In this document: one piece after another, positions 14,505-45,695 of the stretch
How positions within the stretch are numbered: position 1 is the first letter of the stretch
Layout: each line of letters opens with the position of its first letter
Made by a program: the position numbers and the translations under genes
Notes under the pieces: model-generated
Told to the model about the DNA's origin: nothing
The model's database searches: none
Seen by the model: the letters and a program-made list of their open reading frames with translations, nothing else
Assembly (NCBI GenBank): GCA_041498295.1
Contig: JBGQIB010000001.1
Coordinates: forward strand, 2,428-66,427
Length of the DNA: 64,000 nt
Reading direction: 5' to 3'
Source: a bacterium
GTDB taxonomy: Bacteria > Myxococcota_A > UBA9160 > SZUA-336

Positions 14505-14550
14505 GCGGGACGCGGACGAGTGGGTTTCGCAGCGAGTCCGCGAGCGAGAA
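14505..14550. repeat. Local repeat copy C (inverted), matching the segment deleted from copy B.
   Basis: Its reverse complement contains cccttctcgctcgcggactcgctgcgaaacccactcgtc, identical to 13451-13489. Confidence 0.55.
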
Positions 14551-14606
14551 GGGACCCACGAGTCGGCGCCCGCCGAAGCGCCGGCCGCTGCGATCCGATC
14601 CGTGCG

Positions 14607-15083: not shown

Positions 15084-16696
15084 TTGTACTCTCCCGCGGC
15101 GAACTGCTGCGCCGACTTGTAGTCCGCCTTGCCGTTCGGCGCGCGAAACATGGCCGGCACCGCGAGGACGCGCTTCGGCACCTTGTAGCCCGCGAGCCGC
15201 TCCTTCACGTGCGCACGGAGCTTCTCCTCGTCGGTCACCGCGCCGCCGCGCAGCTGCACGACGCCCACGACCGCGTTGCCCCAGCGGTCGTCGGGCACGC
15301 CGACCACGAGCGCGTCCTCGACGTCGGGATGCGTCTTCAGCGCCTCCTCGACCTCCTCGGGGTAGATCTTCTCGCCGGCGGAGTTGATGCACGCGCTACC
15401 GCGCCCGAGCAAGGTCAGCGTTCCGTCCGCCTCGACGATGCACCAGTCACCCGGGATCGAGTAGCGCACGCCGTTGATCGTCGGAAACGTCTTCGCGGTC
15501 TTCTCGGGGTCCTTGTAGTAGCCGACGGGGATCGGGCCGCTGCGCGCGACGAAGCCCTTCTCGCCGCTTCCGGGAGTCACTTCGCGGTGATCCTCGCTGA
15601 ACACCTTGCAGCGATCGCCGATCGTGAACTTCGCGGTGCGCGCTTCGCCGGCCGCCGACATCACCGAGACGCCGAAGCCCACGGCTTCGGACGAGCCGAA
15701 CGAGTCGGTGAGCAGCATGCCCGGGTGATGCCGCAGGAGGCCCTTCTTCACCTCGGTGCTCCACATGACCCCGGACGAGACGATCAGCTTCACCGACGAC
15801 AGGTCCCAGCGACCCGGGTTTTCGTCGAGCGCGTTCAGCATCGGCTTCGCGAACGCGTCGCCGACGATCACGAGTGAGTTGGCCTGTTGACGCTGAACGG
15901 TGTCGAACAGCTCTTCGCAATCGAATTTGCTTCCCGCGAGCGTGATCACGCAGCCGCCGGCGATCATCGTGCCGATCGCCGTGAACAGCCCCGTGCCGTG
16001 CATCAGCGGGCAGCACGGGATTTGGCGCGTCGTCGAGCCGGCCTTCCGCGCGTTCGCGACATGCTGTTCGAGCGTGGCCGGCGCGACTCCGCCGTTCGCG
16101 GGCGCATTCGCGCCCGCGCCCAGCGCGTGCCAGAGATCGTTCGCGGTCCACATCACGCCCTTGGGCATGCCGGTGGTGCCGCCGGTGTAGAGGAAGAGCA
16201 TGTCCTCGCCACTGCGGCGGATGCCGAGCGGGCGACCGTCGCCGCTGGTCGCGAGGGTCTCGTAGGACTCACCGAGCTGCGGGCCGTCGCCGACCCGGAT
16301 CCAGGCGGCGACGCGCGGCAGGCGCGGGCGCAGCAGCTCGACCCTTTCCGCGAACTCGGCGTCGAACAGCACCACCTTCGCATCCGAGTTGTCGAGGATG
16401 TAGCGGAGCTCCTCGTCCAGATAGCGGTAGTTCACGTTCACCTGGACGAGCCGCGCCTTGAAGCAGGCGGCGAGCGCCTCGGTGTACTCGGGTCGGTTGC
16501 GCAGGTAGAACGCGACCTTGTCGCCCGGCTCGGCGCCGCGCGCGAGCAGCGCCGCCGCGAGGTTGTTCGAGCGTCGCCCGAGCTCGCGCCACGTGACCGT
16601 GCGCTCGCCGTGGATCAGCGCCGGCGCGTCGCCCGGAAACGACGCGTCGAGCGCGTCGAGAATGTCACCGAAGTTCCAGTTTGGAGCCGTCGTCAT
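15080..16696 (-). CDS. AMP-dependent acyl-CoA synthetase/ligase.
   Basis: LYTGGTTGMPKGV AMP-binding motif, YGSSE-like and C-terminal lysine region. Start set at MTTAPNW, residue 64 of the ORF. Confidence 0.85.
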   Translation of the reverse strand: MTTAPNWNFGDILDALDASFPGDAPALIHGERTVTWRELGRRSNNLAAALLARGAEPGDKVAFYLRNRPEYTEALAACFKARLVQVNVNYRYLDEELRYILDNSDAKVVLFDAEFAERVELLRPRLPRVAAWIRVGDGPQLGESYETLATSGDGRPLGIRRSGEDMLFLYTGGTTGMPKGVMWTANDLWHALGAGANAPANGGVAPATLEQHVANARKAGSTTRQIPCCPLMHGTGLFTAIGTMIAGGCVITLAGSKFDCEELFDTVQRQQANSLVIVGDAFAKPMLNALDENPGRWDLSSVKLIVSSGVMWSTEVKKGLLRHHPGMLLTDSFGSSEAVGFGVSVMSAAGEARTAKFTIGDRCKVFSEDHREVTPGSGEKGFVARSGPIPVGYYKDPEKTAKTFPTINGVRYSIPGDWCIVEADGTLTLLGRGSACINSAGEKIYPEEVEEALKTHPDVEDALVVGVPDDRWGNAVVGVVQLRGGAVTDEEKLRAHVKERLAGYKVPKRVLAVPAMFRAPNGKADYKSAQQFAAGEYK

Positions 16697-16733
16697 GCGC
16701 GTCCCCTCCCGCGCGGCGCATGATACCCGAAAG

Positions 16734-17996
16734 ATGGAGGTGCGCTTCGTGACACGTAGAGCTGCGCTCGGGGTGCTTCTGGTTTGCGTGAGCTCGGCTT
16801 GCGCACACGCGCCGGTGGAGGATCTCGACACGCGCGCGCGGCGTGTGCACCGCGACGCGATCGTGCTCGACACGCACGCGGACACTACCCCGCGCTTTCA
16901 GTCGCCGGACTTCGATTTTGCCGCGCGGCACGACAAGTCGGACGTGCGCATCGATCTGCCGCGCGCGCGTGAGGGCGGCCTGGACGTGCAGTTCTGGTCG
17001 ATCTGGGTGGGCAAGGTCGAGGGCGACGGGCGCGCGATCCGCGAAGCGCTCGAGCGCATCGACGCAGTGTGGGAGATGGCGCGCCGCTATCCGAACGACG
17101 TCGTGGTGGCGACCGACGTCGCCTCGATCCGGCGCGGCGTCGCCGAGGGCAAGCTCGTCTCGCTGATGGGCGTGGAGGGCGGCCACATGATCGAGGACAA
17201 GCTCTCCATCCTGCGCGACTTCTACCGGCTCGGCGTCCGCTACATGACGCTCACGCACGCGTTCCACACGTCCTGGGCCGACTCGGCGGGCACGGGCCAG
17301 CCGCTGCCTCCCGGGAACGGCGGACTCACACCATTCGGTGTAGAGGTCGTGCACGAGATGAATCGCCTCGGGATGATGGTCGACGTCTCGCACGTCTCGG
17401 ACCAGACGTTCTGGGACGCGCTGAAGGCGTCGCGCGCGCCGGTGATCGCTTCGCACTCGTCGTGCCGAGCGATCTACGATCACCCGCGCAACCTCACCGA
17501 CGACATGCTGCGCGCGCTCGCCGAGAAGGGCGGCGTGGTGATGATCAACTACTACCCGGGCTACACGGATCCGGAAGCGGCGCCGCGCATCGCGGCGTGG
17601 TTCGCGCGCCATGCGACCGAGCTCGGCGCGCTGCGCGAAAAATACGGGACCGACATGCGCGCGCTCGGCGAGGCGATGAAGGCGATCGCCGCGTCGGACC
17701 CGGTTCCACAGGGCACGCTCGACCGCCTGCTCGACCACTTCGACCACGCGCTGCGCGTCGCCGGCGAGGACCACGTGGGCCTCGGCTCGGACTTCGACGG
17801 CGTCGCGAGCTTCCCGGTCGGCCTCGACGAGGTGAGTCTCTTGCCGAACCTGACCCGTGGCCTGCTCGCGCGCGGCTGGTCCGAGGAGGTCGTGAAGAAG
17901 GTCCTCGGCGAGAACCTGCTGCGCGCGATGCGCGAGGTCGAGCTCACGGCCGCGCGCATCAGCGCCGAACCCGCAGCACCCCCGAGCCCGCGATGA
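16734..17996 (+). CDS. Membrane dipeptidase (peptidase M19, renal-dipeptidase family), secreted or lipoprotein.
   Basis: HxD metal site (LDTHADT), GVEGGH, DVSH motifs. Signal peptide MEVRFVTRRAALGVLLVCVSSAC. Confidence 0.85.
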   Translation: MEVRFVTRRAALGVLLVCVSSACAHAPVEDLDTRARRVHRDAIVLDTHADTTPRFQSPDFDFAARHDKSDVRIDLPRAREGGLDVQFWSIWVGKVEGDGRAIREALERIDAVWEMARRYPNDVVVATDVASIRRGVAEGKLVSLMGVEGGHMIEDKLSILRDFYRLGVRYMTLTHAFHTSWADSAGTGQPLPPGNGGLTPFGVEVVHEMNRLGMMVDVSHVSDQTFWDALKASRAPVIASHSSCRAIYDHPRNLTDDMLRALAEKGGVVMINYYPGYTDPEAAPRIAAWFARHATELGALREKYGTDMRALGEAMKAIAASDPVPQGTLDRLLDHFDHALRVAGEDHVGLGSDFDGVASFPVGLDEVSLLPNLTRGLLARGWSEEVVKKVLGENLLRAMREVELTAARISAEPAAPPSPR

Positions 17997-27931: not shown

Positions 27932-29347
27932 TCAAAGGCCCGAGCCGGATCCCTGCGGGCGCGGCTGCGACAGATCGTCGGCAGAGCAGACGAGATTCCG
28001 GCCGAGCGCCTTCCCGAGATACATCGCCTTGTCGGCCAGATCGAGCAGCCGCTCGCGGCTCTCGCCGTGCATCGGGAACGTGGCGACGCCGATGGAGATG
28101 GTGAGTCGAACGTCGAGACCGCGCTCGGCGCCGAACGGGTGATCGGCGACCGATTGGCGGATGCGGTCGGCGACGGAGAGCGCGCCGTCGAGGCCCGTGT
28201 CGACGAGCAGGATCGTGAACTCGTCACCGCCGTAGCGGCCGACGGTATCGATCGCGCGCACTGAATCCTGCAACAGCGCGCCCAGCTCGCGCAGCACGCG
28301 CGAGCCGATCAGGTGACCGAAGCGGTCGTTCACCGCCTTGAAGCGGTCGAGGTCAAGGAACAGCACGGAGAGCTTGCTCTGTGCGCGCGACGCGCGATTC
28401 ACTTCCCGGTCGAGCGCCGCGAGCAGATAGCGCGCGTTGTACAGGCCGGTGACGTCGTCGACGAACGCCTTCTCGCGCGCCTGAAGGAAACGCTCCGAGT
28501 TGATGAGCGCGAGCTCGGCTTGCTCGACGACGAGCTCCGCTCGCTCCAAGTCGTCGCGCGCGAACGCCCGGCCGTCGGAGAAGAGCCAGATGCCGCCCGC
28601 GATGCGGCCCTCGACGCGCACTGGAAGCGCGAGCAGCTGGCCCTCCTCGAGACCGAACTGCGCGAGCGCCGGCGACATGTCTTCGAGCGCCGAGACGGCC
28701 GTACGCTCGAGCTCCGTCGGATCGAAGAGCTTCCCCTCCTCGATCAGGCCGCGCAGCTCGCCCGTGCGCTCCGTCGCGAAGCCGCGCAGCTCGACGCCTT
28801 CGCCCACGTGCGACGGCAGATCGACCAGCCGCGCGATCGCACGCGTGCGCCCAGTGACTCGTAGGACGATGTCGAGCGCGAGCGGTAGGACATCGCCACT
28901 CTCGAGACAGGACGCGAGCGGGCGCGCCGCCTCGAACGCCTGGATGCAACCCCGGAGTGACTCGTTCTCGTCGATCAAGCGGCGGCGAAGCAAGGTGCGC
29001 TTCACCCCGTAGGTGATCTCGGGCGCCGACACCGGCTTGCGCAGGTAGTCGGCCGCGCCGAGGCGCATCGCCTGCAGCGCGCTCTCGAGCGACGCGTAGC
29101 CGGTGAGCACGATGACCTCGGTGTGCGGCGAGGCGCGCTTCACGCGCTCGAGCAGCTCCAGCCCGTCCATCTCGCGCATCGAGAGGTCGGTGATGACCAG
29201 GTCGAACGGGCCTTCGTCGCCCAGGCGCGACAGCGCCTCGCGGCCCGAGGCGGCGGTGGCGACGCGGAAGCCCTCCTGGACGAGCGCGTCTCGCGTCATC
29301 TCGCGAATCAGGCGGTCGTCATCGACCACCAGCACACGCTTGTCCAC
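27932..29347 (-). CDS. Response regulator with REC-GAF-GGDEF architecture (diguanylate cyclase).
   Basis: VLVVDDD...DLVITDLSM receiver. GAF-like middle. RYGGDEF active site. GTG start at VDKRV. Confidence 0.85.
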   Translation of the reverse strand: MDKRVLVVDDDRLIREMTRDALVQEGFRVATAASGREALSRLGDEGPFDLVITDLSMREMDGLELLERVKRASPHTEVIVLTGYASLESALQAMRLGAADYLRKPVSAPEITYGVKRTLLRRRLIDENESLRGCIQAFEAARPLASCLESGDVLPLALDIVLRVTGRTRAIARLVDLPSHVGEGVELRGFATERTGELRGLIEEGKLFDPTELERTAVSALEDMSPALAQFGLEEGQLLALPVRVEGRIAGGIWLFSDGRAFARDDLERAELVVEQAELALINSERFLQAREKAFVDDVTGLYNARYLLAALDREVNRASRAQSKLSVLFLDLDRFKAVNDRFGHLIGSRVLRELGALLQDSVRAIDTVGRYGGDEFTILLVDTGLDGALSVADRIRQSVADHPFGAERGLDVRLTISIGVATFPMHGESRERLLDLADKAMYLGKALGRNLVCSADDLSQPRPQGSGSGL

Positions 29348-29404
29348 GCCTGGGCCCCTCCGCTCGCGAGTCTCCGTTGCGCAGAATCGGCCCCGAATAG
29401 AGCG

Positions 29405-29426
29405 GAGTTGAGACACCGTTCGGTGT
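29405..29426 (-). terminator. Candidate terminator hairpin downstream of purN (GACACCG-TTC-GGTGTC).
   Basis: Perfect 7-bp stem seen in sequence, followed on the transcribed strand by a moderately U-rich stretch. Confidence 0.35.
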
Positions 29427-29453: not shown

Positions 29454-30068
29454 TCAGGGGCGGATCCTGACGCGCCTGCCCACGATCGAGAGGCGCCCCT
29501 CCGCGTGCAGCTGCACGGCGCGGGGGTAGAGCTCGTACTCGACCGCCGCGACGCGCTCGGCAAGCGTTGCGGGCGTGTCGTTCTCACGCACGTCGATCGC
29601 TTGTTGCAGGATGATCGGCCCCGAGTCGTACTGCTCGTCGCAGTAGTGAATCGTCGCGCCGGTCACCTTCGCGCCGTAGTCCAGCACCGCTCGATGGACT
29701 CGCTCGCCGTAGAAGCCCTGGCCACAGAACGCCGGGATCAGCGCGGGGTGAGTGTTCATCGCGCGCCCGTTGTAGCCGCGCAGCTCGATTCTCGAGAGAA
29801 AGCCCGCCAGCACGAGAAGCTCGGGCGGATCCTTTGCGAGCACGGCATGGAGCGCGTCGTTGAACGCGCGCTCTTCGCGGTGCTCCTTGCGAGACACGAC
29901 GTGCGCGGTGATTCCATGTCGGCGCGCCCGCTCGAGTCCTGGGGCCTCTGGCTTGGACGAGATCACCGCGGTGAACTCGACGTCGAGGGCGCCCTTCGCG
30001 CGCTCGGCGACGAGGCGCTCGAAGGTCGTGCCTCGGCCGGAGAGCAGTACCGCGATGCGGAGGGTCAC
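29454..30068 (-). CDS. purN: Phosphoribosylglycinamide formyltransferase.
   Basis: GTG start. Formyl-transferase motifs (NTHPALIP, HYCDEQYDSGPII). Confidence 0.9.
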   Translation of the reverse strand: MTLRIAVLLSGRGTTFERLVAERAKGALDVEFTAVISSKPEAPGLERARRHGITAHVVSRKEHREERAFNDALHAVLAKDPPELLVLAGFLSRIELRGYNGRAMNTHPALIPAFCGQGFYGERVHRAVLDYGAKVTGATIHYCDEQYDSGPIILQQAIDVRENDTPATLAERVAAVEYELYPRAVQLHAEGRLSIVGRRVRIRP

Positions 30069-30125
30069 TCGCGAAGCCTAGCGGACGGAGCGTGGGCAGG
30101 GTGCCCACGCGATGATCGGGAAGCG

Positions 30126-30162
30126 GAGGCGCCTTCCGACTCGTCACCGGAAGGCGCCTCAC
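30126..30162 (-). terminator. Strong GC-rich hairpin (14-bp stem GGAGGCGCCTTCCG/CGGAAGGCGCCTC), then a second 7-bp hairpin (30098-30114), downstream of the giant OMP gene.
   Basis: Seen directly in the 114-nt spacer between the OMP stop and the purN start. Confidence 0.45.
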
Positions 30163-30182
30163 TCATCCCTTCCCGAAGGAAG

Positions 30183-33100
30183 CTACCAGGTGTAGCGGAA
30201 GCGGAGCTCCGCCTGATCGCGGTTCAGCACGGGTGCGGCGCCGCGGCCGAGAACCGCGCTGTTGTATTGCTCGATCGACCCATACTGGGCGATCGGGAAG
30301 TACGCGCCCTGCGCGGTGGATACGTGACCGAAGAAGTTCGAATACCCGATGCTGGTCGAGAACGCGTCATTCCACCGGTACGAGAGACCCGTGAGTACGG
30401 CCGCCTGTTCCTCCAGCGGCCAGTACACCATCGACACGCGCGGCGCGAGCCGATCCTGGAAGTAGCCGGTGAAGAACGTGAGCACCATCTGGGTCGAGAA
30501 CGGACCCACCGAGGTCTGATACATCCCGTCGTTGTTGCGCCTGCCGCCGACGTAGTTCGGGAGGTAGCGCACGAACATCTGGAAGTTCAGGAAGAAGCTG
30601 CGGTTCGGGTTCAGGAAGTTGAAGAACGTCGGGCGGTCGACGGAGAGCGAGAGCACCATCTCGTCGGACTGCGACAGACCCGAGAACTCCTGAGTGTTCG
30701 CGAACAGCTTGCGCGCCATCCACGAGAACTCGACGCCCCAGCTCGTCTTCGTGACGTCCTCCGCGAAGTCGAGACCGAACCCGAACACGTTCTTCTTCTG
30801 GTAGCGCAAGGACACCTGGCGGCCGCCCTGCCACAGGAAGTCGCGGCGCCCGAAGCGACCGTCGCCGCCCGCCTTCTTGATCGGCAGTGTCTGGGTCGTG
30901 CCGCCGACGATTCCCGCGACCGTCTTGCAGAACACTGGTGAGCGCGGCGGCAGGCCGTTCGGGAACTTCGCCTTGAACTTCGCGCTGCCGGGCGCTTCGT
31001 CGAGCCGGTACGGATCGTACTGCGCCGCGTCCTGGAGGACGTCGCCGCGCAGGCCGCTGCCGCACAGGATGTTGTCATCCGTAATCGGGCCAGAGCTGTA
31101 GTCGTCGAGGCCGTCCCAGATCCCGTCCTTGTCCTGGTCGAGGTCGCTTATGCCATCGGCGTTGATATCGCGCGGCAGCTTCACAGTCACTTCGCTCCTT
31201 CCGAAGAGCTCTTCGCGCTGCGGCTTGGTCATCTGCACGTGGTGCTCTACCCCTGCGGAGTCGACGACGCTGACGATTTGGCCGGAGAAGAGCAGGCTCA
31301 GCTTCTTGAGATCCGCCTGCTGGAGGGCCGCGAGATTCACCTTGCGCGCTCCGATGGTGGTCGGCGGGAGGTTCGGGTCGTTCGGCTCGTCGACCTCCGC
31401 GACCGTGAAGCCGATCGGCAGGTCGATCACGAGCGGCAGCTTGGACTTTGTGTCCGTGGGATCGTGCAGGGTCGCGCTGACGTCGTAGAGACACTGCGCG
31501 GTCCTCTTGCACTCGACGTTCGGGTCGAAGGTCAGGAGGCGGGTGAGGGCCTCTTGCTTGTCGGCCGGGGCCACGATCAGAGCGTTGTCTCCCACGCGCC
31601 GCGCGGGCATGACCTCGAAGTCGACCTCGTCGTCTCGGAACACCATCTGGTTTCGCGTGAAGATGCCGTCCGGGCCAGAGATCGGGTCCCCGTGGGCTTG
31701 CTTCGCGGTGCTGCCGCTGCCCCAGTTCGAGAGCTCGGTGAGGCTCTCGGGTGGATCGAAGATGCGATCGAAGCCGATGATCTCGCCCGCGATCAGCAGG
31801 CGTTCGAAGTTCGCCGACGCGGTCTCGAGCGCCGTGCAGCCGTGGTTGAAGGGGGTGCTCGAGACGGCGGCATCGAGGGTGTTCATCCAGCGCCCGCAGT
31901 ACTCGCCGTCGATCTGAGAGTAGGACGTCGCTGCCCCGGTCTGGTTCTTGTCGATGAAGTTCCACTGGTTGAGCGGGCTCGAGAGATCGAACGGGTTGTT
32001 CGGGTCGTTCTCGAAGACGATGGCTCCGAACTTCTTCCTGGCCTCCGGGTCCACCTTCCACGGCATCGGCTCGACCCAGCCGTCGGCCTGCTTCGGGTCG
32101 TTCGGGTCGTTCTGGAACTCCGCGCGGCCGACCCGGCCCAAGTCGATCACTTGCTGGGGCGTGATGTCGAGGTAGTGGCCGCGCTCGATTTGTGCGGGGG
32201 GGAGCCCTGGAATCGGGATGAACACTACGGTGCCGTCGCGGCTGTAGTTGATCCCGGGCTCGTACACGAGCTGTCCCTTCGGGCCCACCCGCGTTCCGAC
32301 CAGGGCACCCGGCGAGACCGCCTTCAGGCCGGTGAACTCCTGCGTAACGACGCTGGCGTCGGCGTTCATCAGATCGATGCCACCGAACTGATCACCGGGG
32401 CGGCGCTTCAGGGACGCCAGGATCGCCGGGTCGAGCGCCCAGACTTGTGCCTGTGCCGAGCTGCAAGGGGATGCGTATGCCGCGCCGCAGCCGAGTAGAG
32501 CCGCCTGTTCGGGCAGGAGGTTGAGTCCGAGGTCCTGATCGAATGAGTCCTGACGCCCCTTCGGATTGACCGCCAGGAACTCGGTCTCCAGGAAGGAACC
32601 GAGCTGCTGCCCGACGTTGTCGTAACCGTTGGGCTGGGTGCGAATCGTGTCGGTGCCGTCGAGCACGAGGGCGCCGAGACCGCCCAGGCCACCGAGGATA
32701 TTGGAAATGAAGCCGAACGTACCCGGGTTGTTCAGGCGGTCGAAGGCGCAGTAGCCCTCGTCCTGGTCGAACGTGTAGGCGCAGATCGAGTGGAAGAGTG
32801 TCTGGTTTACGTTGTGCAGCGAGGCGATCGCCTCGGGAGCGCGCAGGTGCTGGCGGCCGTTCTCGGGATTATTGGGGTCGTTCGGGTCGTTGAACGGGTT
32901 GCCCCAGAGCAAGCAATGGCCACCGCTCGCGAAGGTGTCGTCGCCATCGCCCGGGATACCGTTCGGACCGACGGCCTGTCCTTTCGCGTTCTTGCGGATG
33001 GTGCACTGCCCGCCCGCGCGCGTGGCCGTCGAGAGCGGGGCGCCCGTGGAAAAATCCGCCGTTCGCTCGTACTGCTGTACCAAGTTGAGATAGAAGCCAT

Positions 33101-35543
33101 CATCCCAGCCCCAGAAGTCGGAGACCGCGAACGTGAAGCGATCCAAGCGACCCTCGAGGCGGGCGCCGTAGTCCCAGGTCGCCCAGCTGTTGTAGTCGTG
33201 GTTGGGCCGCTGTTCGCCGGCGACGCCGATGGCCGCGAGGCCTGACGCCATCGCGCCGAAGCTCTTCAGGCAGATCAAGTCGACGGCGCCGCCTTCGCCG
33301 CACTTGCCGAGGTCGGTGGGCGTGAATTTGTTGAAGATCCAAAGAAGCTCGAGACGCAGGTCCTCGATTGGACCTACCCGCATGAACATCTCGGGCGAGA
33401 TCGTGACGTCTGCCGCCCACTGACCGACGCGCTGCTCTTCGAGCGGACCGAACAGGCCGTTGCCGATGTCGAGCGGGTTGTTGCGGTCCTGGTTGCGGAA
33501 CAGCTCGGTCTTGCCCCAGATCACGATCAACTTGCCGACACGCGCGAACACCTGGCTGTCCGCCATCTCGAACTCGAGATAGCCCTCGGCGAACTCGTGC
33601 TCCTGCTGGCTCGCGCCGTGGTTCCACGCCAGCTCGTCCTCGTTGAATTTCAGGTCGAGCTGCGACACCACGGCCTTGTGAGTGGCATAGAAGTTGGCCG
33701 TGCCCGGCGCCTGGAAGTCGATCCCGTTGCCCTTCTGCCGCGGCCGCGCGGGAATCTGGAAGCCGTCGCTGTCGCTGTAGAGGAGGAGGTCCGTGGCGTC
33801 GAGCGGTTCGTTGGAGGCCTGCGCCGGGCGAGCGCGGATATCTGCCAAGAGACTCAGCACCTCGTACTGAACCTGCCTTGATTTGGTGGCGTTGACCTGG
33901 ATGCAGCGGCCGTCGCCGTTGACGCCGATGTTGGGTGTCGAGGTGAAGTTCGCGCGCGAGAGCGCGCCGCAGCCGGCGGCAGACGCTTGCGCGGTGATGT
34001 CGGCGCCATTGGTTGCCGTGCACTTCTTCGTCACCAGGTTGAACGTGCCGCCGATCCCGCCGGTTGAGGTCTGGCAGCCCTGTAGGGTCACGTAGTCAGG
34101 GTTGTACTCACCGTACAGCTCGACTGTCTTGGAGATGCTCGGGTTGTTCGCCGTCGGCACCGTGATCTGAGCCGTATCCGAGAACACGTGGATTCCGCTG
34201 TCGCTCACGTTGAATCGATCGGTCGGGATCGGCGCTGCGAGCGTGTAGCCCGCGGCCTGCCCGGTTGGGTTGTTCGCGACGAACGGCAGATCGTCCGCGG
34301 TGTCGCGAATGCCATCGGGCCCGATGAAATACGGATCCGACCTCTTCACCGTGATGGAAGGAACGATGATCTTATTCCCGTCCGCGTCGATAATCGTCGG
34401 CGCGCCGACGACGTCCGCGCTGAGATCATCCGCGACACCAGTCTCGTACTGTCCGAACCAGTTCAGGCCTCCGGCATTCGCGAAGTAGCCCTTCGGATTG
34501 ATCGGGGTGTTGATCGTGGCCAGGAACGGCGTAATCGCGCTCCCGATCTTGTTCGAGCCCCACTTCGCCGTGAGCAGCTGCGGGGACAGCGCCTTCGAGA
34601 AGATCGCGAAGCGGTTGGGATCGGGGCGGGTGCCGAGAAGCTCCGGGATGTTGGCGTCGAAGGTGGTCTGTGTCGTGCCGAGAATCGCGTCGGCCTCCGC
34701 GGTCGCCGCCTGCGCCGCGGCCTGGTCGCCGGCTTTCTGGGCCAGCGAGGCCTGGACGATCAACGTGCGCCGCAGCGACTCCTGCGTGATCGAGAGCGTA
34801 TTGCCTCCGATCAGGAGGTTCCGCAGGCGGTTGAACTCGCCTTCACCGATCGTCGGGCGCGCCGAGCTGAGCAGTGACTCGCGCGAGAGGCGCGAGAAGT
34901 CGCCGCTGCGAACCTCGATGAACTGAGGTAGACCCGGCTTCAGCGGGCCGTCGAGCGGTGTGCGCTGATTCAGGTTGCAGAAGGCCGCCAGCGGGAACGG
35001 GTTCTGGAAGATGCCCGGCGGGTTCTCGCACTCGCGGTAGCGCCGCCCCGGGTTGTACTCCTTCCGGGCGTCCGTGAGCGTTCCGGGAACGTAGATCTGT
35101 TTCAGCAAGCCGCCGAAGAACGGGGACGGGTTCTGGACGCCCGCCTGCAGGCTCGCGGGTTGGCGAACGGCTTTGCGCGAGGCGTCGCCGTACGAGTCCG
35201 CGGCGTTGAACAGGCCGCAGGCTCGCGTATAGATGCAGTCGTAGCTCGCGAGCACGCGCGTGAACATGAACATCGAGTCGAACGGCCCGAAGCCGTCCGG
35301 GAAGAGCGACAACTCGAACTCGACCGAGAGCACGTGCCGGAACTGCGAGAACGTGACGGAGTTTGCCGGCAGGTCTTCGCCAGTGAACAGCAAGCGCGCC
35401 TCGTAGAAGCCGTGAATCGAGAACTTCCGCTCTCCGGGCAGATCCCACTCGAACGCCTTCGCGCGGTTCGCCAGGCCGACGCCCGTGATCAGGATACCGA
35501 GGACCAGAGCAGCAAGTCTGCCCGCAGCTAGCCTTCCCCTCAT
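30183..35543 (-). CDS. Giant (1786-aa) outer-membrane protein. DUF1302/AupA-like N- and C-terminal beta-barrel segments flank a ~1400-aa Gly/Asp/Asn/Pro-rich insertion carrying thrombospondin-type-3-like DPNDPN calcium-binding motifs.
   Basis: Signal peptide. N-terminal FSIHGFYEARLLF. C-terminus ...AELRFRYTW (aromatic terminal residue). Motifs NDPNDPNNPENG, NDPNDPKQADGW, ENDPNNPFD, DQDKDGIWDGLDDY. Confidence 0.7.
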   Translation of the reverse strand: MRGRLAAGRLAALVLGILITGVGLANRAKAFEWDLPGERKFSIHGFYEARLLFTGEDLPANSVTFSQFRHVLSVEFELSLFPDGFGPFDSMFMFTRVLASYDCIYTRACGLFNAADSYGDASRKAVRQPASLQAGVQNPSPFFGGLLKQIYVPGTLTDARKEYNPGRRYRECENPPGIFQNPFPLAAFCNLNQRTPLDGPLKPGLPQFIEVRSGDFSRLSRESLLSSARPTIGEGEFNRLRNLLIGGNTLSITQESLRRTLIVQASLAQKAGDQAAAQAATAEADAILGTTQTTFDANIPELLGTRPDPNRFAIFSKALSPQLLTAKWGSNKIGSAITPFLATINTPINPKGYFANAGGLNWFGQYETGVADDLSADVVGAPTIIDADGNKIIVPSITVKRSDPYFIGPDGIRDTADDLPFVANNPTGQAAGYTLAAPIPTDRFNVSDSGIHVFSDTAQITVPTANNPSISKTVELYGEYNPDYVTLQGCQTSTGGIGGTFNLVTKKCTATNGADITAQASAAGCGALSRANFTSTPNIGVNGDGRCIQVNATKSRQVQYEVLSLLADIRARPAQASNEPLDATDLLLYSDSDGFQIPARPRQKGNGIDFQAPGTANFYATHKAVVSQLDLKFNEDELAWNHGASQQEHEFAEGYLEFEMADSQVFARVGKLIVIWGKTELFRNQDRNNPLDIGNGLFGPLEEQRVGQWAADVTISPEMFMRVGPIEDLRLELLWIFNKFTPTDLGKCGEGGAVDLICLKSFGAMASGLAAIGVAGEQRPNHDYNSWATWDYGARLEGRLDRFTFAVSDFWGWDDGFYLNLVQQYERTADFSTGAPLSTATRAGGQCTIRKNAKGQAVGPNGIPGDGDDTFASGGHCLLWGNPFNDPNDPNNPENGRQHLRAPEAIASLHNVNQTLFHSICAYTFDQDEGYCAFDRLNNPGTFGFISNILGGLGGLGALVLDGTDTIRTQPNGYDNVGQQLGSFLETEFLAVNPKGRQDSFDQDLGLNLLPEQAALLGCGAAYASPCSSAQAQVWALDPAILASLKRRPGDQFGGIDLMNADASVVTQEFTGLKAVSPGALVGTRVGPKGQLVYEPGINYSRDGTVVFIPIPGLPPAQIERGHYLDITPQQVIDLGRVGRAEFQNDPNDPKQADGWVEPMPWKVDPEARKKFGAIVFENDPNNPFDLSSPLNQWNFIDKNQTGAATSYSQIDGEYCGRWMNTLDAAVSSTPFNHGCTALETASANFERLLIAGEIIGFDRIFDPPESLTELSNWGSGSTAKQAHGDPISGPDGIFTRNQMVFRDDEVDFEVMPARRVGDNALIVAPADKQEALTRLLTFDPNVECKRTAQCLYDVSATLHDPTDTKSKLPLVIDLPIGFTVAEVDEPNDPNLPPTTIGARKVNLAALQQADLKKLSLLFSGQIVSVVDSAGVEHHVQMTKPQREELFGRSEVTVKLPRDINADGISDLDQDKDGIWDGLDDYSSGPITDDNILCGSGLRGDVLQDAAQYDPYRLDEAPGSAKFKAKFPNGLPPRSPVFCKTVAGIVGGTTQTLPIKKAGGDGRFGRRDFLWQGGRQVSLRYQKKNVFGFGLDFAEDVTKTSWGVEFSWMARKLFANTQEFSGLSQSDEMVLSLSVDRPTFFNFLNPNRSFFLNFQMFVRYLPNYVGGRRNNDGMYQTSVGPFSTQMVLTFFTGYFQDRLAPRVSMVYWPLEEQAAVLTGLSYRWNDAFSTSIGYSNFFGHVSTAQGAYFPIAQYGSIEQYNSAVLGRGAAPVLNRDQAELRFRYTW

Positions 35544-35611
35544 CGCATTCCCCTCTCTACCTTCCTTGCACTTGCGACCGCGGCGCTTCCCTCACACCGC
35601 GATTGCGACGT

Positions 35612-38600
35612 TCAGCCTGCTCTGGCCGCAATTGGAAGCGGCTCGGAGTTACCCAAGTGATGTTGCTGCGTGACCTCGCTAAGTGACGCGGCGAAGAATT
35701 TCGGGCGAAAGATCGAGAAGCACGCCGGGACCAGATAGATCGCCCCGAGCATGTTCACGAACATCAGGATCGAGAGGAGTTGCGCCATCTCGGCCTGAAA
35801 ACGGAGGCCGCTGAAGGCCCATGCGACGATCCCGCCGATCACGGTCGTCGCGGTAAACGACACGGCCATGCCCGTGGTTCGGATCGCGCGCCGGATCGCC
35901 TCGTCCAGATCGCCGAGCCAGGAGTACTCCTGGCGAATGCGATCGGTGGTGTAGAAGGCGTAGTCGACGCCCACCCCGACACCGACCGATTGCACCGGCA
36001 ACGTCTGGATCGTGAGCCCGGTCTCGCGCCACGCCATCCAGGCGAGCGAACCGATGGTCGCAGTCGCGAGGCTGAACACGATCACGAGCCCCGCGATGTT
36101 CGAGCGGTAGCTGATTGCGACGAACAGGTAACAGATCAGGAAGATCAACAGGATGTTCGCGACGTGTCCGCGCTCGACTTCCTCGTTCACGGCCGCGTAC
36201 ACGCCCATGATGCCGCCCGCGAGCACGAACTCCGCGCCGCGCGTGTAGGTGTTCGTGCGCTGCGGGTCGAACGACTTGTCGTTGAACTTCGTGTTCCGAG
36301 TCCAGAGCTCGTACCCGCAGTACGTCCGGCAGTAGCGGAGTGTCTGCGCGGTGATGTTGCCCTCGTCGTTCTTCCATTCTTCGTCGACGTAGAACTTGCT
36401 GCGCTCGACGATGTAGTGGACGAGCTCGCCGACGGTCGCGAAGCGCGAGATCGCGTCGCCCGCGGAGCGATCGACCGTCTCGATGCGGTAGTCGTGGTCC
36501 GCGGAGAGTTTCTCGGCGACTTTCTCCAGGCGCTCCGAGTCGAACTCGAGATCCTTGAAGCGGTCACTCGCGGTGACGGGACCGAGCTTTCTTCGCGACT
36601 CCGCTTGGAGCGCCGCGGCGACCTCAGTGAGGACGTCGTCGGCTTTCACGGGCTCCGACCACTTCCCGACTCGGATCGGCTGCTTCGACTGGTAGCCCGT
36701 GATCTTCTGGTCTTCGTTGATGTCCGCGACCTGTACGGTCATCTGCGAGTGTCTCGGGAACAGGATCGGCCCGACGAGGTAGTACGCGGCGTCGAACGGC
36801 TCGCCGCGGTCCTGCACGAGGCGCACGTTGATCCGCCCCATCGGATTCTTCTCGATGAACTCCTGCGCGTAGTGGACCGCGCGCTTGATCGTCGCTCCCT
36901 TGTGATCGCGGAAGTAGAACGTGATGTTCGCGTCCTCGGCGTCGTCCGTGAGATACGGGCGCAGGAAGCCGGGCGCACTGTTCTGCTGCAGCTGAAAGAC
37001 GATCCCGCCGATGGTCTGCGCGGCGTCGGGGACGAAGCCCCATTTCGGATCGTTGTAGTGATTCACGAGCCAGTACTGCTTGATGACGTCGACGAGCGAG
37101 ACGGTCTGGCCGACGTCCACGTAGCGCTTCATGTAGCGCTGCATCGCTTCCATGCGCTGCAGGACCGCACCGTCCGAGCTCGCGCTCTTGCCGTCGCCGT
37201 CGACGAAGATCGTCATCTGATCCACGCCGCCGAAGGTCTCGCCGATCTTCCCGGTCGCGACGTTGTACGGGTGATCGGGCCAGAAGACCGGTGAACCGGG
37301 GCGACTCTCTCCGATCGTCGTGTGATACAGCACGTACCAGGTCGCGAGCACGAGACCGAGCGCCGTACCGCCGACGAGCGCCCACTTACTGACTGGGCCG
37401 GTGGCGATGCGCCCGGTCGTCGTCAGGAAACGCTGCATCCACGCCGGGGTGAAGTGATGGAAGTCGTGCGGCGGCGGCAGGTACGAGATCATGATCGGGT
37501 GGAGCATGATCACGTTGAAGATGATCGCGACGACCCAGAACGAGCCGAAGATCGACAGGTCGCGCATGGTCTGGATCGTCGTGAGGAAGCAGACCCCGAG
37601 GCCCGCTGCGTCGGCCAGGATGCCGAGCATGCCGGGCAGCATTAGCTTGGCCATCGCGGTAGTCGCGGTCTCGACCTTCGCGGCCTCGAGTTCTTCGGCG
37701 CTGAGTGAGCGGCCGAGCCTGTGCTCGCCCGCCTTGCACGCCATCTCGTAGTCTTCGAAGAAGCGCTCCGCCATCTGGATCGTGTGCGAGATGGAGCGCG
37801 CCGTGATGAGCAGCGGAATCACGAGCACGAGCGGATCGAGCGTGATTCCGACCCAGGCGCAGAAGCCCAAGCCCCAGATCGAAGTCGCCAGACCCGCGAC
37901 CATCGGGATCGCCACGCCGTGCAGCCGGCGGAAGTAAGCCAGCAACAGGAAGAACAGCGCGACGATCGTGACGAGCAGGTAGTAGACGATCTGGAACTGC
38001 GAATCGATCACGTAGCCCGTCGCCATGGGCGCGCCCGAGATGTAGATTTCTGCGGTGCCGTCGGCCTCTTCCTCCGCCTTCAGGTTCCGGAGGTAGTTGA
38101 AGAGCGCCGTGTAGGCCTCGCGGTTGTCGAGGTTCTGCGTGATGAAGCCGGCGGTGATGAAGCACGCGCGGTGATCGCGCGACACGAGCTGTCCGTAGAT
38201 CGGGCCGGGATTCTCGAGGACCTTCTGCTTGAGCTTCGCGAGCTCCCCCGGTTCCTCGGGAGTCTCCTCGATCAGCGGCGTGGCTTCGATCGCGCCGTCG
38301 GGCTGGATCGTCATCACGCGCGTGTTGATGTGCGTGAGGCTCCGAACCTGGTAGTGATTGACGTTCGGCGCCTGGTCGAGCTTGTCCGTGATGCGAGAGA
38401 CTTTCTGCAGAAAGTCGTAGTCGTAGATCTCGCCGTCCTTCTTGATCGCGACGATCGCGATCGTGGAGGCGGATCCGAACTTCCCCGCGAACTTGTCCTG
38501 CGCGTGGATGTACGGGTGCTCGGGGAAGGTCTTACGCACGTTCGCGTCCATGCGGAAACGCGCCGGCGACCCGAACAGGAGCTTGCCTTCACCGGTCTCG

Positions 38601-38788
38601 CTGCGCTGCGCGGTGAAGTTGTAGTAAGCGGCGTTGACGAGCGGGAACACGAAGAAGAGCGCGAGACTCAGGAGAGTCATCAGAGTCGCAAACCGGTACT
38701 TCATGATGAGCCGCCCGAAGCGCATCGAGAACGCGCTCTCCGGGAGGTTCTCCTCCATGAAGTCCGGCGGTCGCTGACCCTCGGGCAC
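35612..38788 (-). CDS. RND-superfamily (MMPL/COG1033-type) exporter with two 6-TM bundles and two large periplasmic domains. GTG at the ORF start; MRFGRL or MKYRF ATGs are alternatives.
   Basis: Twelve predicted TM segments in two repeats. Architecture typical of the transporters that accompany DUF1302/DUF1329 genes. Confidence 0.8.
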   Translation of the reverse strand: MPEGQRPPDFMEENLPESAFSMRFGRLIMKYRFATLMTLLSLALFFVFPLVNAAYYNFTAQRSETGEGKLLFGSPARFRMDANVRKTFPEHPYIHAQDKFAGKFGSASTIAIVAIKKDGEIYDYDFLQKVSRITDKLDQAPNVNHYQVRSLTHINTRVMTIQPDGAIEATPLIEETPEEPGELAKLKQKVLENPGPIYGQLVSRDHRACFITAGFITQNLDNREAYTALFNYLRNLKAEEEADGTAEIYISGAPMATGYVIDSQFQIVYYLLVTIVALFFLLLAYFRRLHGVAIPMVAGLATSIWGLGFCAWVGITLDPLVLVIPLLITARSISHTIQMAERFFEDYEMACKAGEHRLGRSLSAEELEAAKVETATTAMAKLMLPGMLGILADAAGLGVCFLTTIQTMRDLSIFGSFWVVAIIFNVIMLHPIMISYLPPPHDFHHFTPAWMQRFLTTTGRIATGPVSKWALVGGTALGLVLATWYVLYHTTIGESRPGSPVFWPDHPYNVATGKIGETFGGVDQMTIFVDGDGKSASSDGAVLQRMEAMQRYMKRYVDVGQTVSLVDVIKQYWLVNHYNDPKWGFVPDAAQTIGGIVFQLQQNSAPGFLRPYLTDDAEDANITFYFRDHKGATIKRAVHYAQEFIEKNPMGRINVRLVQDRGEPFDAAYYLVGPILFPRHSQMTVQVADINEDQKITGYQSKQPIRVGKWSEPVKADDVLTEVAAALQAESRRKLGPVTASDRFKDLEFDSERLEKVAEKLSADHDYRIETVDRSAGDAISRFATVGELVHYIVERSKFYVDEEWKNDEGNITAQTLRYCRTYCGYELWTRNTKFNDKSFDPQRTNTYTRGAEFVLAGGIMGVYAAVNEEVERGHVANILLIFLICYLFVAISYRSNIAGLVIVFSLATATIGSLAWMAWRETGLTIQTLPVQSVGVGVGVDYAFYTTDRIRQEYSWLGDLDEAIRRAIRTTGMAVSFTATTVIGGIVAWAFSGLRFQAEMAQLLSILMFVNMLGAIYLVPACFSIFRPKFFAASLSEVTQQHHLGNSEPLPIAARAG

Positions 38789-38790
38789 GT

Positions 38791-40245
38791 CTACTCACCG
38801 GCACCCGTCGCCGGAGCCTGTTCCGGCTTCGGAAGCACCTCGTACCAGCTCGTGCCCGCGTCGGTGGAGCGCAGCACGTTTCCGCCCTGCCCCACCATCC
38901 AGCACACGCTCGGCGTGCCGCAGGTCAGGTCGCGGAAGTAGCCGTGTTTCTCGGGCGGGAAGCGACCGTAGCCACCCTCGTCGCCCAGCTTCTGCCACGA
39001 CTTACCGCCGTCGAGACTCACGCGACGCAGGCCCTTCTCACCGACGGCGATCAACTTGGAGTCCGCGAACGCGGCGGCGAACAGCGCCTGCTTCGAACCC
39101 GTCTGGAGATACTCCCAGTTGCGACCGCCGTCCGTGCTGGTGAGTGCCACGCCGCCGAGGCCGGTGATCATCCCGTGATCGAGATCGCGGAACTTCACGT
39201 CGAACAGGAACGGTGTCTCGATGACCTCGATCTTCACGACCGGCTCGGCCTGGACCTTGGTCTGTGCGAACGCCTTCATGTCGACGCCCTCCTGATCCAG
39301 TGGCGTCGGGTGTTTGATCTTGATGCGGTCCTGGTTGATGCCTTCGTTCTCGAGAAACTTCTGGATCTCGTCGGCGCGCTCGTCTGTGAGGAACGTGTCC
39401 TTGCGCTGGTGCAGCTCGTCGGCGGTGAGATAGCCCTCGATCTCGACCTTCAGATAGGGGCGCTCCGCGAGCACCTCGGCCGCCTTGAAGATCTGGTCCC
39501 AGCGATCCTTGGGGACCTTCTTCTCGCTCTTCGGGAACGAGATGTCGTCGAAGTGCACGGTGCCCTTGATGCGACCGCGCTCCCAGGTCTGCCCGCCGTC
39601 CTCGGTGCGGAAGATGAAGCCGTACTCGCCGGCCATCCATCCGTGGTCCTTGTCGGCGAAGTAGACGTCGTTCAGGAAGATGTCGTCGTAGATCTTGTCG
39701 CCGCGCTCGAACGCCGCGAGCTCGTCCTCGGAGAGATACTTGAAGCTCGGGTGGTCGCGGCCGACGAGGAACGAGCGGTCCTCCCAGGTCTTGCCGCCAT
39801 CGGCCGTGTAGTAGCGACCGCCCCAGTCACCGACCGCCCACGCGGTGTTCGCGTCGACGGCGCGCACCGCGAACAAGTGCTGCGCGGGCTTGCGCGGGAT
39901 CGTCTGCTGCTCCCACGTGTCGCCGCTGTCGGTCGTGTGAATCACGAAGCCGCGGCGACCGACCGCCCAACCGTTCTTCTCGTCCGCGAACGAGATGTCA
40001 TAGATCGACTGGTCGGTGAGTCCGTTGAGCTTGCGCCAGTTCTTTCCGCCGTCGGCCGTGCGGTAGATCGCGCCGAAATAGCCCGCCGCCCAAAGGTGGT
40101 CGGCGCCGATGGCCGTGACTGCGTAGAGGTCGTCCGGGAGGTCGATCTGACCTTCCGCGAACTTCTCCTCGTACTTCTCCTGACTGCACGCGCTCGACAC
40201 GAACGCGACCGCGAGCAGCAAAATCAGGGCGCGCGTCGCGCGCAT
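38791..40245 (-). CDS. BNR/Asp-box repeat, Ycf48-like beta-propeller lipoprotein.
   Basis: Signal peptide MRATRALILLLAVAFVSSAC. Repeated SxDGGxTW motifs (TADGGKNW, TDSGDTWE, TADGGKTWE, TEDGGQTWE, STDGGRNWE, SLDGGKSWQ, STDAGTSW). Confidence 0.8.
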   Translation of the reverse strand: MRATRALILLLAVAFVSSACSQEKYEEKFAEGQIDLPDDLYAVTAIGADHLWAAGYFGAIYRTADGGKNWRKLNGLTDQSIYDISFADEKNGWAVGRRGFVIHTTDSGDTWEQQTIPRKPAQHLFAVRAVDANTAWAVGDWGGRYYTADGGKTWEDRSFLVGRDHPSFKYLSEDELAAFERGDKIYDDIFLNDVYFADKDHGWMAGEYGFIFRTEDGGQTWERGRIKGTVHFDDISFPKSEKKVPKDRWDQIFKAAEVLAERPYLKVEIEGYLTADELHQRKDTFLTDERADEIQKFLENEGINQDRIKIKHPTPLDQEGVDMKAFAQTKVQAEPVVKIEVIETPFLFDVKFRDLDHGMITGLGGVALTSTDGGRNWEYLQTGSKQALFAAAFADSKLIAVGEKGLRRVSLDGGKSWQKLGDEGGYGRFPPEKHGYFRDLTCGTPSVCWMVGQGGNVLRSTDAGTSWYEVLPKPEQAPATGAGE

Positions 40246-40509
40246 TCGTCCGAGCGTGCTCAATGCCCCTCCCCGTCGGGCCCCGAGCGCAACGCGCGCA
40301 GGTCCCTGAGCCGCAAATTTCCCGTCTCCCGGTTCAGTGCGTCGCGCAGAAAGCATGCCGCGGAGGTCCACGACCAGCGCCGACCGGTGGCCGGTTCTAC
40401 GACGAGCGCTGACCCAGTGTCAAGCTTCGGCGGAAATTCCGGCACCGATGTGCAGCAGACGCGCAATTCGGTGAGCCATTCGCAGCGACAGGTCGGGCCG
40501 GCAGATAGA

Positions 40510-44117: not shown

Positions 44118-45695
44118 TCAGCCTTTGACGGCGACCTCGTCGCCCTGCTGGTACATATTCGCGAGGCGCTCGATTTCTTCCGGCGTCAGCGTGCCGCGCG
44201 GATTCACCTGGATCGAATGAGCGCGGCCGGTCGCGAGATCGCGCGCCGAGACCGACACGATGCCGTTCGCATCGATGTCGAACGTGACCTCGATCTCCGG
44301 CTGGCCCTTCGGTCCGGGCGGAATGCCGGCGAGCACGAATTCGCCGAGCAGATCGTTGTCGTCCGCGCGCTCGCTCTCGCCCTGCAGCACGCGGATCTTC
44401 ACCGCGGTCTGATTGTCACGCGTGGTGGTGAAGATCTCCTGGCGCGATGTCGGCACCGTGGTGTTGCGCTCGATGAGCTTCGCGAAGTGACCGCCGAAGG
44501 TCGCGATGCCGAGCGACAGCGGAGTCACATCGACGAGGAGCGGGCCCTCCTTCTCCTCGCTGAGCATCGCCGCCTGGATCGCGGCGCCGACCGCGACGAC
44601 TTCGTCGGGATTCACGCCCTTGTGCGGGGTCTTCCCGAAGAACGACGCGACCGTCTTCTGCACCATCGGCATGCGTGTTTGACCGCCGACCAGCAGCACC
44701 TGGTCGATCTGCTTCACGGTGAGCTTCGCGTCGTCGAGAGCGCGCTGCACGATCGGCTGAGTGCGGAGGACGAGCTCGCCGACGAGCTCCTCGAGTTTCT
44801 CGCGCGTGAGCAGCACGCTCATGTGCAGCGCGTTCTCTTCCGCGTCCGCCGCGATGAACGGCAGATTGATCTCGGTCGAGCCGAGCTGCGAGAGATCGCA
44901 CTTCGCCTTTTCCGAGGCATCCTTCAGCCGCTGCAGCGCCATCGTGTCGCCGCGCAGCGAGAGCTTTTCCTTCTCCTGGAAGGTCGCGAGCAGGTGATCG
45001 ACGATCTTGCGGTCGAAGTCCTCGCCGCCGAGCTGTGTGTCGCCGGAGGTCGCGAGCACCTCGATCACGCCCTTGCCCATTTGCAGGATCGAGATGTCGA
45101 ACGTGCCGCCGCCGAGGTCGTAGACCGCGATGATCTCGGTCTTGTCACGGCCGAAGCCGTAGGCGAGCGCCGCCGCCGTCGGCTCGTTGATGATGCGCAA
45201 GAGCTCGAGGCCCGCGATGCGCCCGGCGTCGCGCGTCGTCTGGCGCTGCGCGTCGTTGAAGTAGGCGGGCACTGTGATGACGGCCTGCTGCACGGTGTCT
45301 CCGAGATACTCCTCGGCGACGCGCTTCATCTCGCGCAGCACGATGCCCGAGATCTCGGGGATCGTGTACACGCGCCCCGCGACGCGCACGCGCACGTCGT
45401 TGTTCGGGCCCTGGACCAGCTCGTACGGCAGCAGCTCCTTGAACTTGGAGACGTCCTGCGAATCGAAGCTGCGTCCGATCAAGCGCTTCGCCGCATAGAC
45501 CGTGTTCTTCGCGTTCGTGACGGCCTGGCGCTTGGCGAGGTGACCCACCAGGCGCTTGCCCTCCTCCGTGACGGCGAAGATCGACGGCGTCGTCTTGTAC
45601 CCGCCCGTGTTGGGAATCACGACGGGCTGGCCATCCTCGAGGATGGCCACGCAGGAGTTCGTGGTTCCCAGATCGATTCCGATTACTCGACTCAT
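44118..45695 (-). CDS. Hsp70-family chaperone lacking the C-terminal helical lid (525 aa, HscC-like).
   Basis: [25 protein letters not shown] motifs. Substrate-binding beta domain present. Ends ~110 aa short of canonical DnaK. Confidence 0.9.

Follow-up and report, generated by a model that had tools for sequence, protein, structure and literature searches.

A 64,000-nucleotide (nt) stretch of a Myxococcota_A genome (contig JBGQIB010000001.1, positions 2,428 to 66,427; hereafter the window) contains an operon of three consecutive minus-strand open reading frames (ORFs) encoding a Ycf48-like BNR propeller lipoprotein, an RND permease and a giant outer-membrane protein, in this order. On balance, we regard this operon as a lineage-specific, three-component derivative of the Ame-type envelope transporter, in which a DUF1302 barrel protein, a DUF1329 protein, a COG4447 propeller and an HAE3-type RND permease are combined.

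The DUF1302/DUF1329/BNR/RND module occurs widely among Gram-negative bacteria, and mutants lacking it show strong phenotypes, among them altered growth on Tween 20, altered monoterpene tolerance and pleiotropic envelope effects. To our knowledge, neither a solved structure nor a substrate is available for the four-gene module. The window variant amounts to a natural experiment in which three components are kept, DUF1329 is dropped and all three remaining proteins are enlarged; as such, it can reveal the contacts that are indispensable and tell whether the system can do without DUF1329 as a shuttle. Domains of about 500 amino acids (aa) placed within single, predicted extracellular loops would also be an unusual outer-membrane architecture. 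As the giant protein is invisible to Pfam, a family model would improve the annotation of Myxococcota metagenome-assembled genomes (MAGs).

A tblastn search of plasmids with the RND permease found the canonical cluster on plasmid 2 of Aromatoleum aromaticum EbN1 (NC_006824.1, locus L084). There, genes for a YCF48-related protein (321 aa), an MMPL protein (791 aa), a DUF1302 protein (556 aa) and a DUF1329 protein (417 aa) follow one another, flanked by beta-oxidation genes. The features of the window operon are listed below in window positions; those of the three ORFs agree with the initial annotation of this DNA.

38791..40245 (-), Ycf48-like BNR beta-propeller lipoprotein, 484 aa from ATG at 40245
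39220..39582 (-), propeller insertion of ~120 aa (residues ~222-342) with an OmpA-like domain; no counterpart in the alignment with the EbN1 protein
35612..38788 (-), HAE3/MMPL-type RND inner-membrane permease, 1058 aa from GTG at 38788
36254..36838 (-), RND insertion of ~195 aa (residues ~651-845) in the loop between transmembrane helices TM7 and TM8, periplasmic; a gap in the BLASTP alignment with the EbN1 MMPL protein
30183..35543 (-), giant outer-membrane protein, 1786 aa, ATG start
35124..35453 (-), N-terminal barrel block, residues 31-140, strands b1 (39-52), b2 (66-79) and b3 (88-105); aligns to ~1-130 of the ~1000-aa paralogs
33660..35123 (-), insertion A, residues 141-628, predicted extracellular loop L2; the paralogs have ~100-130 aa here
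32244..33659 (-), core block, residues 629-1100, strands b4-b9 (654-824) followed by a Cys-rich loop region common to the shorter paralogs
30948..32243 (-), insertion B, residues 1101-1532, within predicted extracellular loop L5 (825-1574); the paralogs have ~45-80 aa here
31041..31169 (-), Asp-rich, TSP3/EF-hand-like putative Ca-binding site, residues 1459-1501 (DINADGISDLDQDKDGIWDGLDD...DDNILC), assigned from conservation
30186..30947 (-), C-terminal barrel block, residues 1533-1786, strands b10-b18
30090-30176 (-), two terminator-like hairpins directly 3' of the giant stop codon

Family assignment and architecture of the giant protein

At 1786 aa, the giant is about three times as long as canonical DUF1302 proteins (556-605 aa), as had been noted initially. 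A homologue search gave 31 matches, of which about 25 are full-length proteins (1779-1959 aa, 36-80% identity). These orthologs were found in MAGs of Myxococcota or 'Deltaproteobacteria', and in public data each is either unnamed or labelled 'hypothetical protein'. The 25 full-length orthologs are colinear, keep the lengths of the individual blocks and occur in independent assemblies. Hence a collapsed assembly or a fusion of two genes, a possible artefact raised by the initial annotation, was rejected as the origin of the giant.

The window protein gave no Pfam or NCBIfam match at E<=1 and did not reach the PF06980 (DUF1302) gathering score of 23.2 bits, and the profile of its family found no match among PDB sequences. 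Within the family, PF06980 is recorded at E<=1 in 13 of 26 members, and two of five individually scanned orthologs, P0008 (26.3 bits) and P0025 (29.7 bits), pass the cut-off. The ortholog match lies mid-protein, at residues ~650-720, and corresponds to profile positions 146-217 of 541.

The relationship to DUF1302 is provided by shorter paralogs. A scan of GTDB genomes yielded 267 relatives of the giant, of which 80 loci were looked at. The relatives form two tiers, orthologs of ~1800 aa and paralogs of ~950-1400 aa, the latter often encoded in tandem arrays of two to four genes. Three colinear blocks of the giant (residues 1-140, 629-1100 and 1533-1786) can be aligned with the paralogs, with E-values of 1e-14 to 1e-59 and 30-44% identity. 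All eight paralogs tested pass the PF06980 threshold (40-58 bits), and a paralog alignment matched almost the entire EbN1 DUF1302 protein (hhalign 81%, E 1.2e-5, residues 30-556); the giant profile compared with this single sequence reached only 8.6%. Because of the three-block match to paralogs that themselves pass PF06980 and match EbN1 DUF1302, we assign the giant, from sequence comparison, to the DUF1302 superfamily as a very distant relative with two lineage-specific insertions. Since the window giant has no family match of its own, its similarity to DUF1302 is indirect.

The protein begins with a signal peptide (residues 1-30, cleavage between AKA and FEW) and ends with a C-terminal beta-signal (...LRFRYTW). 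Its 22 cysteines form 11 consecutive conserved pairs. We modelled the giant with AlphaFold2 as two overlapping pieces, using about 27 homologs for each. The piece covering residues 587-1786 had a predicted local distance difference test (pLDDT) score of 64 and a predicted template modelling (pTM) score of 0.58; for residues 31-1200 the scores were 53 and 0.36. Across the two models, 18 barrel strands are predicted in three blocks, with long strands at residues 39-52, 66-79 and 88-105, at 654-671, 709-736 and 791-824, and nine more between 1575 and 1784. Short turns are found at b4/5, b8/9, b10/11, b14/15 and b16/17. According to the usual rule for outer-membrane proteins, connections from an odd to an even strand are extracellular, and with these turn positions both insertions fall in such connections. 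We therefore infer from the models that L2 would contain insertion A and L5 insertion B, each outside the cell. This layout replaces the arrangement in the initial annotation, where two terminal barrel segments flanked a single insert of ~1400 aa: there are three blocks and two insertions, and the only stretch matching DUF1302 directly (~650-720) belongs to the core block.

The best fold matches of the giant are 18-strand barrels of the Occ/AlgE type. OprD/Occ channels and AlgE/Wzi share this strand number; they are only 7-11% identical to the giant, measure 370-440 aa and have no large loop domains. The FadL and Toluene_X families gave no match to the giant, and FadL was seen only at a Foldseek E-value of 0.1.

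Both insertions are mixed alpha/beta and locally confident in the models, and they come on top of a Cys-rich L5 extension that the paralogs already possess. For insertion A, the models predict first a helical bundle and then an alpha/beta domain; the insertion contains three Cys pairs, and pLDDT values are 65-92 over residues ~220-580. Family members of intermediate size have only its C-terminal half. A profile search of 1.84 billion protein representatives with insertion A gave 69 matches, all from its own family or fragments of it, and the search with insertion B gave 19, all fragments of the giant's own family. Thus, profile searches found no sequence relatives of either insertion outside the giant family. 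As no Ser or His within the insertions is invariant among 26 sequences, a hydrolase site is not evident.

The putative Ca-binding site near the end of insertion B is highly conserved: D1469, D1473, D1477, D1480, D1481, D1489, D1490, N1491 and C1494 are invariant in the 26 sequences. A regular-expression search found one strict DxDxDGxxDxxD motif (1469-1480) with an adjoining D/N loop (1459-1466). PF02412 (TSP_3) or PF00404 is recorded on the homologs P0031, P0036, P0037, P0044 and P0045, and the window copy has no PF02412 match. The initial description of an insertion full of thrombospondin-type-3-like motifs was thus overstated, and the NDPNDP strings are not conserved. Of the Pfam families that were to be checked, MMPL was matched in the operon, and DUF1302 and TSP_3 were not matched in the window giant.

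The enlarged permease and propeller lipoprotein

The presence of transporter and BNR genes was borne out by profile matches. The permease matches PF03176 (MMPL) at E 1.4e-17 and reaches 86 bits against TIGR00921 (HAE3), which is below the cut-off of 351.9; among PDB entries it matches MmpL3 (3e-7) and HpnN. By BLASTP it is colinear with the EbN1 MMPL protein at 33-38% identity, apart from the periplasmic insertion between TM7 and TM8. No recurrent Pfam family was found in this insert across 13 orthologs. An ACP-like domain suggested there by a weak hit (NF002150, E 0.03) was reproduced in none of the 13 and was discarded. In the alignment of these orthologs, conserved sequence is seen only from residue 12 onward, which makes ATG at 38758 a possible true start.

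The propeller protein matches PF14870 (Ycf48) at E 2e-34, and its best PDB match is Ycf48 (8am5, E 1.5e-23). Its signal peptide contains a lipobox Cys at residue 20 that is kept in all 14 orthologs. An alternative start, TTG at 40263, has GGAGGGG closely upstream. Relative to the YCF48-related protein of the EbN1 cluster, to which it is 29% identical, the window protein has extra stretches of ~23 and ~120 aa and is ~140 aa longer in total. The larger stretch contains an OmpA-like domain: PF00691 passes marginally in the window protein (27.8 bits against a gathering score of 27.2) and is matched in 11 of 14 orthologs, with a best E-value of 2.4e-8. Judging from this family match, the insert is probably peptidoglycan-anchoring.

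The residue after the lipobox Cys is Ser (CSQEK), i.e. neither Asp nor Lys. If the sorting rules of other species apply, this would allow the propeller protein to sit in the outer membrane as a Pal-like peptidoglycan-associated lipoprotein, not in the inner membrane.

DUF1329 and the reading of the operon as a transporter

The local absence of DUF1329, claimed in the initial annotation, holds well beyond the operon. A tblastn search of the 64-kb window with 21 myxococcal DUF1329 proteins gave a best E-value of 0.07. We also ran a DUF1329 profile hidden Markov model (HMM) over all six reading frames of the window and of 25 orthologous loci totalling 470 kb. It gave no match there, and its positive controls reached 780-790 bits. 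The idea that the giant itself conceals a DUF1329-like domain was rejected as well (hhalign probability <1%).

One side observation concerns the mature N-terminus of the giant. Its sequence AFEWDLPGER (residues 30-39, window 35427-35456) resembles AFEWxLxGER at positions ~316-335 of myxococcal DUF1329 proteins, and several of the DUF1329 tblastn matches fall on it. The likeness is not significant by hhalign (0.45% probability) and may reflect chance or a common contact motif.

Comparison of neighbourhoods in related MAGs, proposed in the initial annotation, showed that the BNR-RND-giant order is kept in 13 of 17 loci with upstream sequence, down to 36% giant identity. The surrounding genes form a syntenic housekeeping neighbourhood (dnaJ, dnaK, a TPR gene, argG, ABC1, the operon, a purN-like formyltransferase, a response-regulator diguanylate cyclase, aspS and a fatty-acid desaturase), and hydrocarbon catabolic genes are not among the operon neighbours.

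The shorter Myxococcota paralogs of 950-1400 aa (for example in L031, L034, L056 and L066) have a different setting. They share with the giant the three barrel blocks and the Cys-rich L5 extension, lack most of insertions A and B and, unlike the window giant, score above the Pfam DUF1302 cut-off. Their genes form tandem arrays near DUF1329, a two-component system and beta-oxidation genes, not with BNR-RND. In 19 shorter-paralog loci a DUF1329 gene (PF07044, E 9e-22) lies directly downstream, usually in convergent orientation, and is followed by genes for a histidine kinase, a response regulator, PAC2, acyl-CoA dehydrogenases and a thiolase. Tandem arrays beside a convergent DUF1329 gene (L056, positions 2535-17739; also L031, L034, L049 and L060) are usually downstream of topA.

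Among characterised systems, the closest is AmeABCD of Castellaniella defragrans 65Phen, which consists of DUF1302, DUF1329, COG4447 and HAE3 proteins and for which the export of hydrophobic compounds is supported; this is the only dedicated study of the four-gene module (PMC6394551). The window operon resembles AmeABCD and the EbN1 cluster in its HAE3 RND permease, its COG4447 Ycf48-like propeller adjoining the RND gene and its DUF1302-type barrel, and its BNR-RND-outer-membrane protein order is that of EbN1. It differs from them in lacking DUF1329/AmeB, in the size of the outer-membrane protein (1786 against 556-605 aa, with two family-specific loop insertions) and in the lengths of the permease (~195 aa longer) and the propeller (~140 aa longer, including the OmpA-like domain). 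Its setting is housekeeping rather than a catabolic island, and its host belongs to Myxococcota rather than Proteobacteria.

In Shewanella, Kangiella and Pseudomonas, the DUF1302, DUF1329, COG4447 BNR and COG1033 RND genes are cofit, and export of envelope components has been proposed (bioRxiv 10.1101/072470). AlphaFold co-folding has suggested that DUF1329 is a periplasmic adaptor touching both the barrel and BNR-RND (PMC10866462). The split modules of Pseudomonas (PP_0765 DUF1302, PP_0766 DUF1329, PP_2018 BNR, PP_2019 RND) and Shewanella (Sama_1588-1591) thus comprise the same families as the window operon within a cofit, proposed envelope transport system that has DUF1329 as periplasmic adaptor. 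There, DUF1302 is always found with DUF1329; here, the DUF1302-like gene is found with BNR-RND instead.

The initial annotation had called the cluster AupA/alkane-uptake-like. Its kinship with the DUF1302 module stands, given the homology to the EbN1 genes; the label does not, as AupA is described as FadL-like (21% identity to FadL) in a paper that never mentions DUF1302 (PMC5989066). AupA/AupB of Marinobacter hydrocarbonoclasticus is similar in that an outer-membrane protein and a partner handle hydrophobic compounds. It differs in that AupB is an inner-membrane protein encoded in the same operon, BNR or RND proteins are not mentioned (PMC5989066) and the giant has no FadL-family match. A literature search returned no paper linking AupA with DUF1302 and none linking DUF1302 with Myxococcota.

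Transporters of the HAE3, HpnN and MmpL types move lipids outward, and characterised RND pumps export. We infer that the three window proteins function together and in the export direction. In the mechanism we propose, the proton-driven HAE3 permease would withdraw its cargo from the inner membrane; this cargo would be hydrophobic or amphiphilic and most likely a lipid-like component of the envelope or surface. The permease would work together with the Ycf48-like propeller lipoprotein, which in this lineage bears an OmpA-like, probably peptidoglycan-anchoring, domain. The cargo would then cross, or be inserted by, the 18-strand DUF1302-type barrel, which appears to have gained ~1,200 aa of disulfide-rich, putatively Ca-binding, family-specific domains in L2 and L5, probably as a surface cap or binding platform. 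The bridging role of the LolA-like DUF1329 protein would be dispensable, or might have been taken over by the periplasmic extras of the permease (~195 aa) and the propeller (~120 aa).

A bolder version of this proposal would have the transporter rebuilt without a LolA-like shuttle, such that the peptidoglycan-anchored propeller and the enlarged RND domain join the barrel directly and the loops form ~1,200 aa of new, Ca-stabilised, disulfide-bonded surface domains that lack relatives beyond their own family. We offer it as a tentative idea that is, in our estimate, unlikely. If true, it would represent a previously undescribed way of building a large surface structure in the loops of a porin-like barrel, coupled to the export of lipids or hydrophobes.

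Several observations weigh against the operon being a three-component Ame-type derivative. The window giant itself fails every family model, and the folds of its insertions have no significant match in the PDB. Each model covers a part of the protein, with moderate to low confidence (pLDDT 64 and 53) and the barrel in pieces, and the extracellular placement of the insertions rests on strand parity. The association of the three genes has exceptions: L017 has a giant in the syntenic slot without BNR-RND, L008 has BNR and giant genes without RND, and L003 and L010 are solo paralogs. For the canonical module in Pseudomonas, the inability of mutants to use Tween 20 or butyl stearate for growth has been given another interpretation too, a defect in uptake or hydrolysis. 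Finally, DUF1329 is abundant in Myxococcota (at least 825 matches) and could lie elsewhere in a giant-bearing genome.

This last point leads to the possibility that the system is an ordinary four-component Ame-type transporter whose DUF1329 gene is located elsewhere in the genome, e.g. beside a shorter paralog, and the missing partner would then be merely a matter of gene placement. Besides the abundance of DUF1329 and its position next to DUF1302-like paralogs in the 19 loci mentioned above, the precedent of P. stutzeri and P. putida speaks for it, where the module consists of two unlinked pairs that are still cofit. The proteobacterial splits, however, keep DUF1302 with DUF1329, not with BNR-RND as here; DUF1329 is missing from all 25 orthologous loci, and the 80 loci sampled from the 267 relatives include no assembly with both a giant locus and a paralog-DUF1329 locus. 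We therefore consider a split system possible, if somewhat unlikely.

Two further readings question the export function itself. Uptake of hydrophobic substrates (alkanes, fatty esters, prey or soil lipids), with surface domains that capture and a barrel that admits, would suit the large extracellular domains and the beta-oxidation genes that flank both the EbN1 cluster and the myxococcal paralog-DUF1329 loci. It would also agree with the requirement for the DUF1302, DUF1329, BNR and RND genes in P. putida growth on Tween 20 and butyl stearate (10.1101/2020.07.04.188060). Yet the RND, HAE3 and MmpL pumps that have been characterised export, the genes around the operon are housekeeping rather than catabolic, and the insertions show no sign of a hydrolase site. 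Moreover, the established alkane-uptake protein AupA is FadL-like rather than a DUF1302 protein, and growth on Tween 20 is normal in aup mutants (PMC5989066). We find uptake distinctly unlikely. The giant might instead act chiefly on the cell surface, as an adhesin or coat protein anchored by its DUF1302-type barrel, and be functionally independent of the neighbouring BNR-RND lipid pump. Such a role is compatible with the ~1,200 aa outside the barrel, the 11 Cys pairs and the Ca-binding motif, as well as with the giants that occur alone (L003 and L010), without BNR-RND (L017) or without RND (L008). It would leave unexplained why the gene order equals that of the canonical module and is kept in 13 of the 17 informative loci, and it sits poorly with the short intergenic gaps (2 and 68 nt) and with the lack of a terminator before the end of the giant; we judge it more improbable still.

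Genomic setting and transcription signals

The operon genes have a G+C content of 0.637-0.652, compared with 0.69-0.72 in the flanks and 0.64-0.73 in the window. Because the synteny around the operon is nevertheless kept in relatives, horizontal transfer is an unlikely cause of the low value.

The BNR gene ends with a TAG codon 2 nt before the RND GTG, so the two genes do not overlap. The translational coupling of these adjacent genes proposed initially is thus plausible, although no stop and start codons are shared and the true RND start may be the ATG at 38758. Between the RND stop and the giant ATG there is a gap of 68 nt that contains a Shine-Dalgarno-like site, GAGAGGGG.

No terminator was seen within the operon before the end of the giant. 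Downstream of it, hairpin 1 has a 14-bp stem (30126-30160) enclosed by an outer stem (30116-30176), and hairpin 2 has a 9-bp stem (30090-30110); the region folds with -62.8 kcal/mol (z = -4.15). A hairpin of equal length is present at the equivalent place in orthologous loci, with another stem sequence and followed by U4-5, which supports a terminator role of the window hairpins. The claim that two strong hairpins end the operon can therefore be retained, with the reservation that the window hairpins are not followed by a U-run.

A sigma-70 promoter scan of the region gave zero matches. The 255-bp divergent stretch between the BNR gene and ABC1 contains TTGACA and TAGAAC separated by 18 nt (40395-40424, minus strand). 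This pair, which is absent from the output of the consensus scan, is a weak sigma-70-like candidate for the operon promoter, proposed from its sequence.

Downstream, the purN-like formyltransferase gene and the response-regulator/GAF/GGDEF diguanylate cyclase gene (27935-29416 and 29484-30068, both on the minus strand) follow the giant in nearly all orthologous loci; their gene clusters, 7 and 1, are represented in 15 and 28 loci, respectively. The cyclase might conceivably be tied to the regulation of the operon.

Individual loci depart from the single-copy arrangement. L004 (10001-21695) carries two tandem giants of 1915 and 1919 aa after BNR-RND. The solo copy in L003 (10001-15607) is located beside a Trans_reg_C/AAA_16/TPR regulator, and that in L010 (9794-15344) is a second copy, split into ORFs of 292 and 1561 aa, in the same MAG as L011.

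On the other side of the operon, a plus-strand ORF at 43155-45809 matches PF10712, 'NAD-specific glutamate dehydrogenase', at E 3e-126. The match is spurious and the ORF was rejected as a gene, being the antisense frame of dnaK (44121-45695, minus strand), whose HSP70 match has an E-value of 6e-212.

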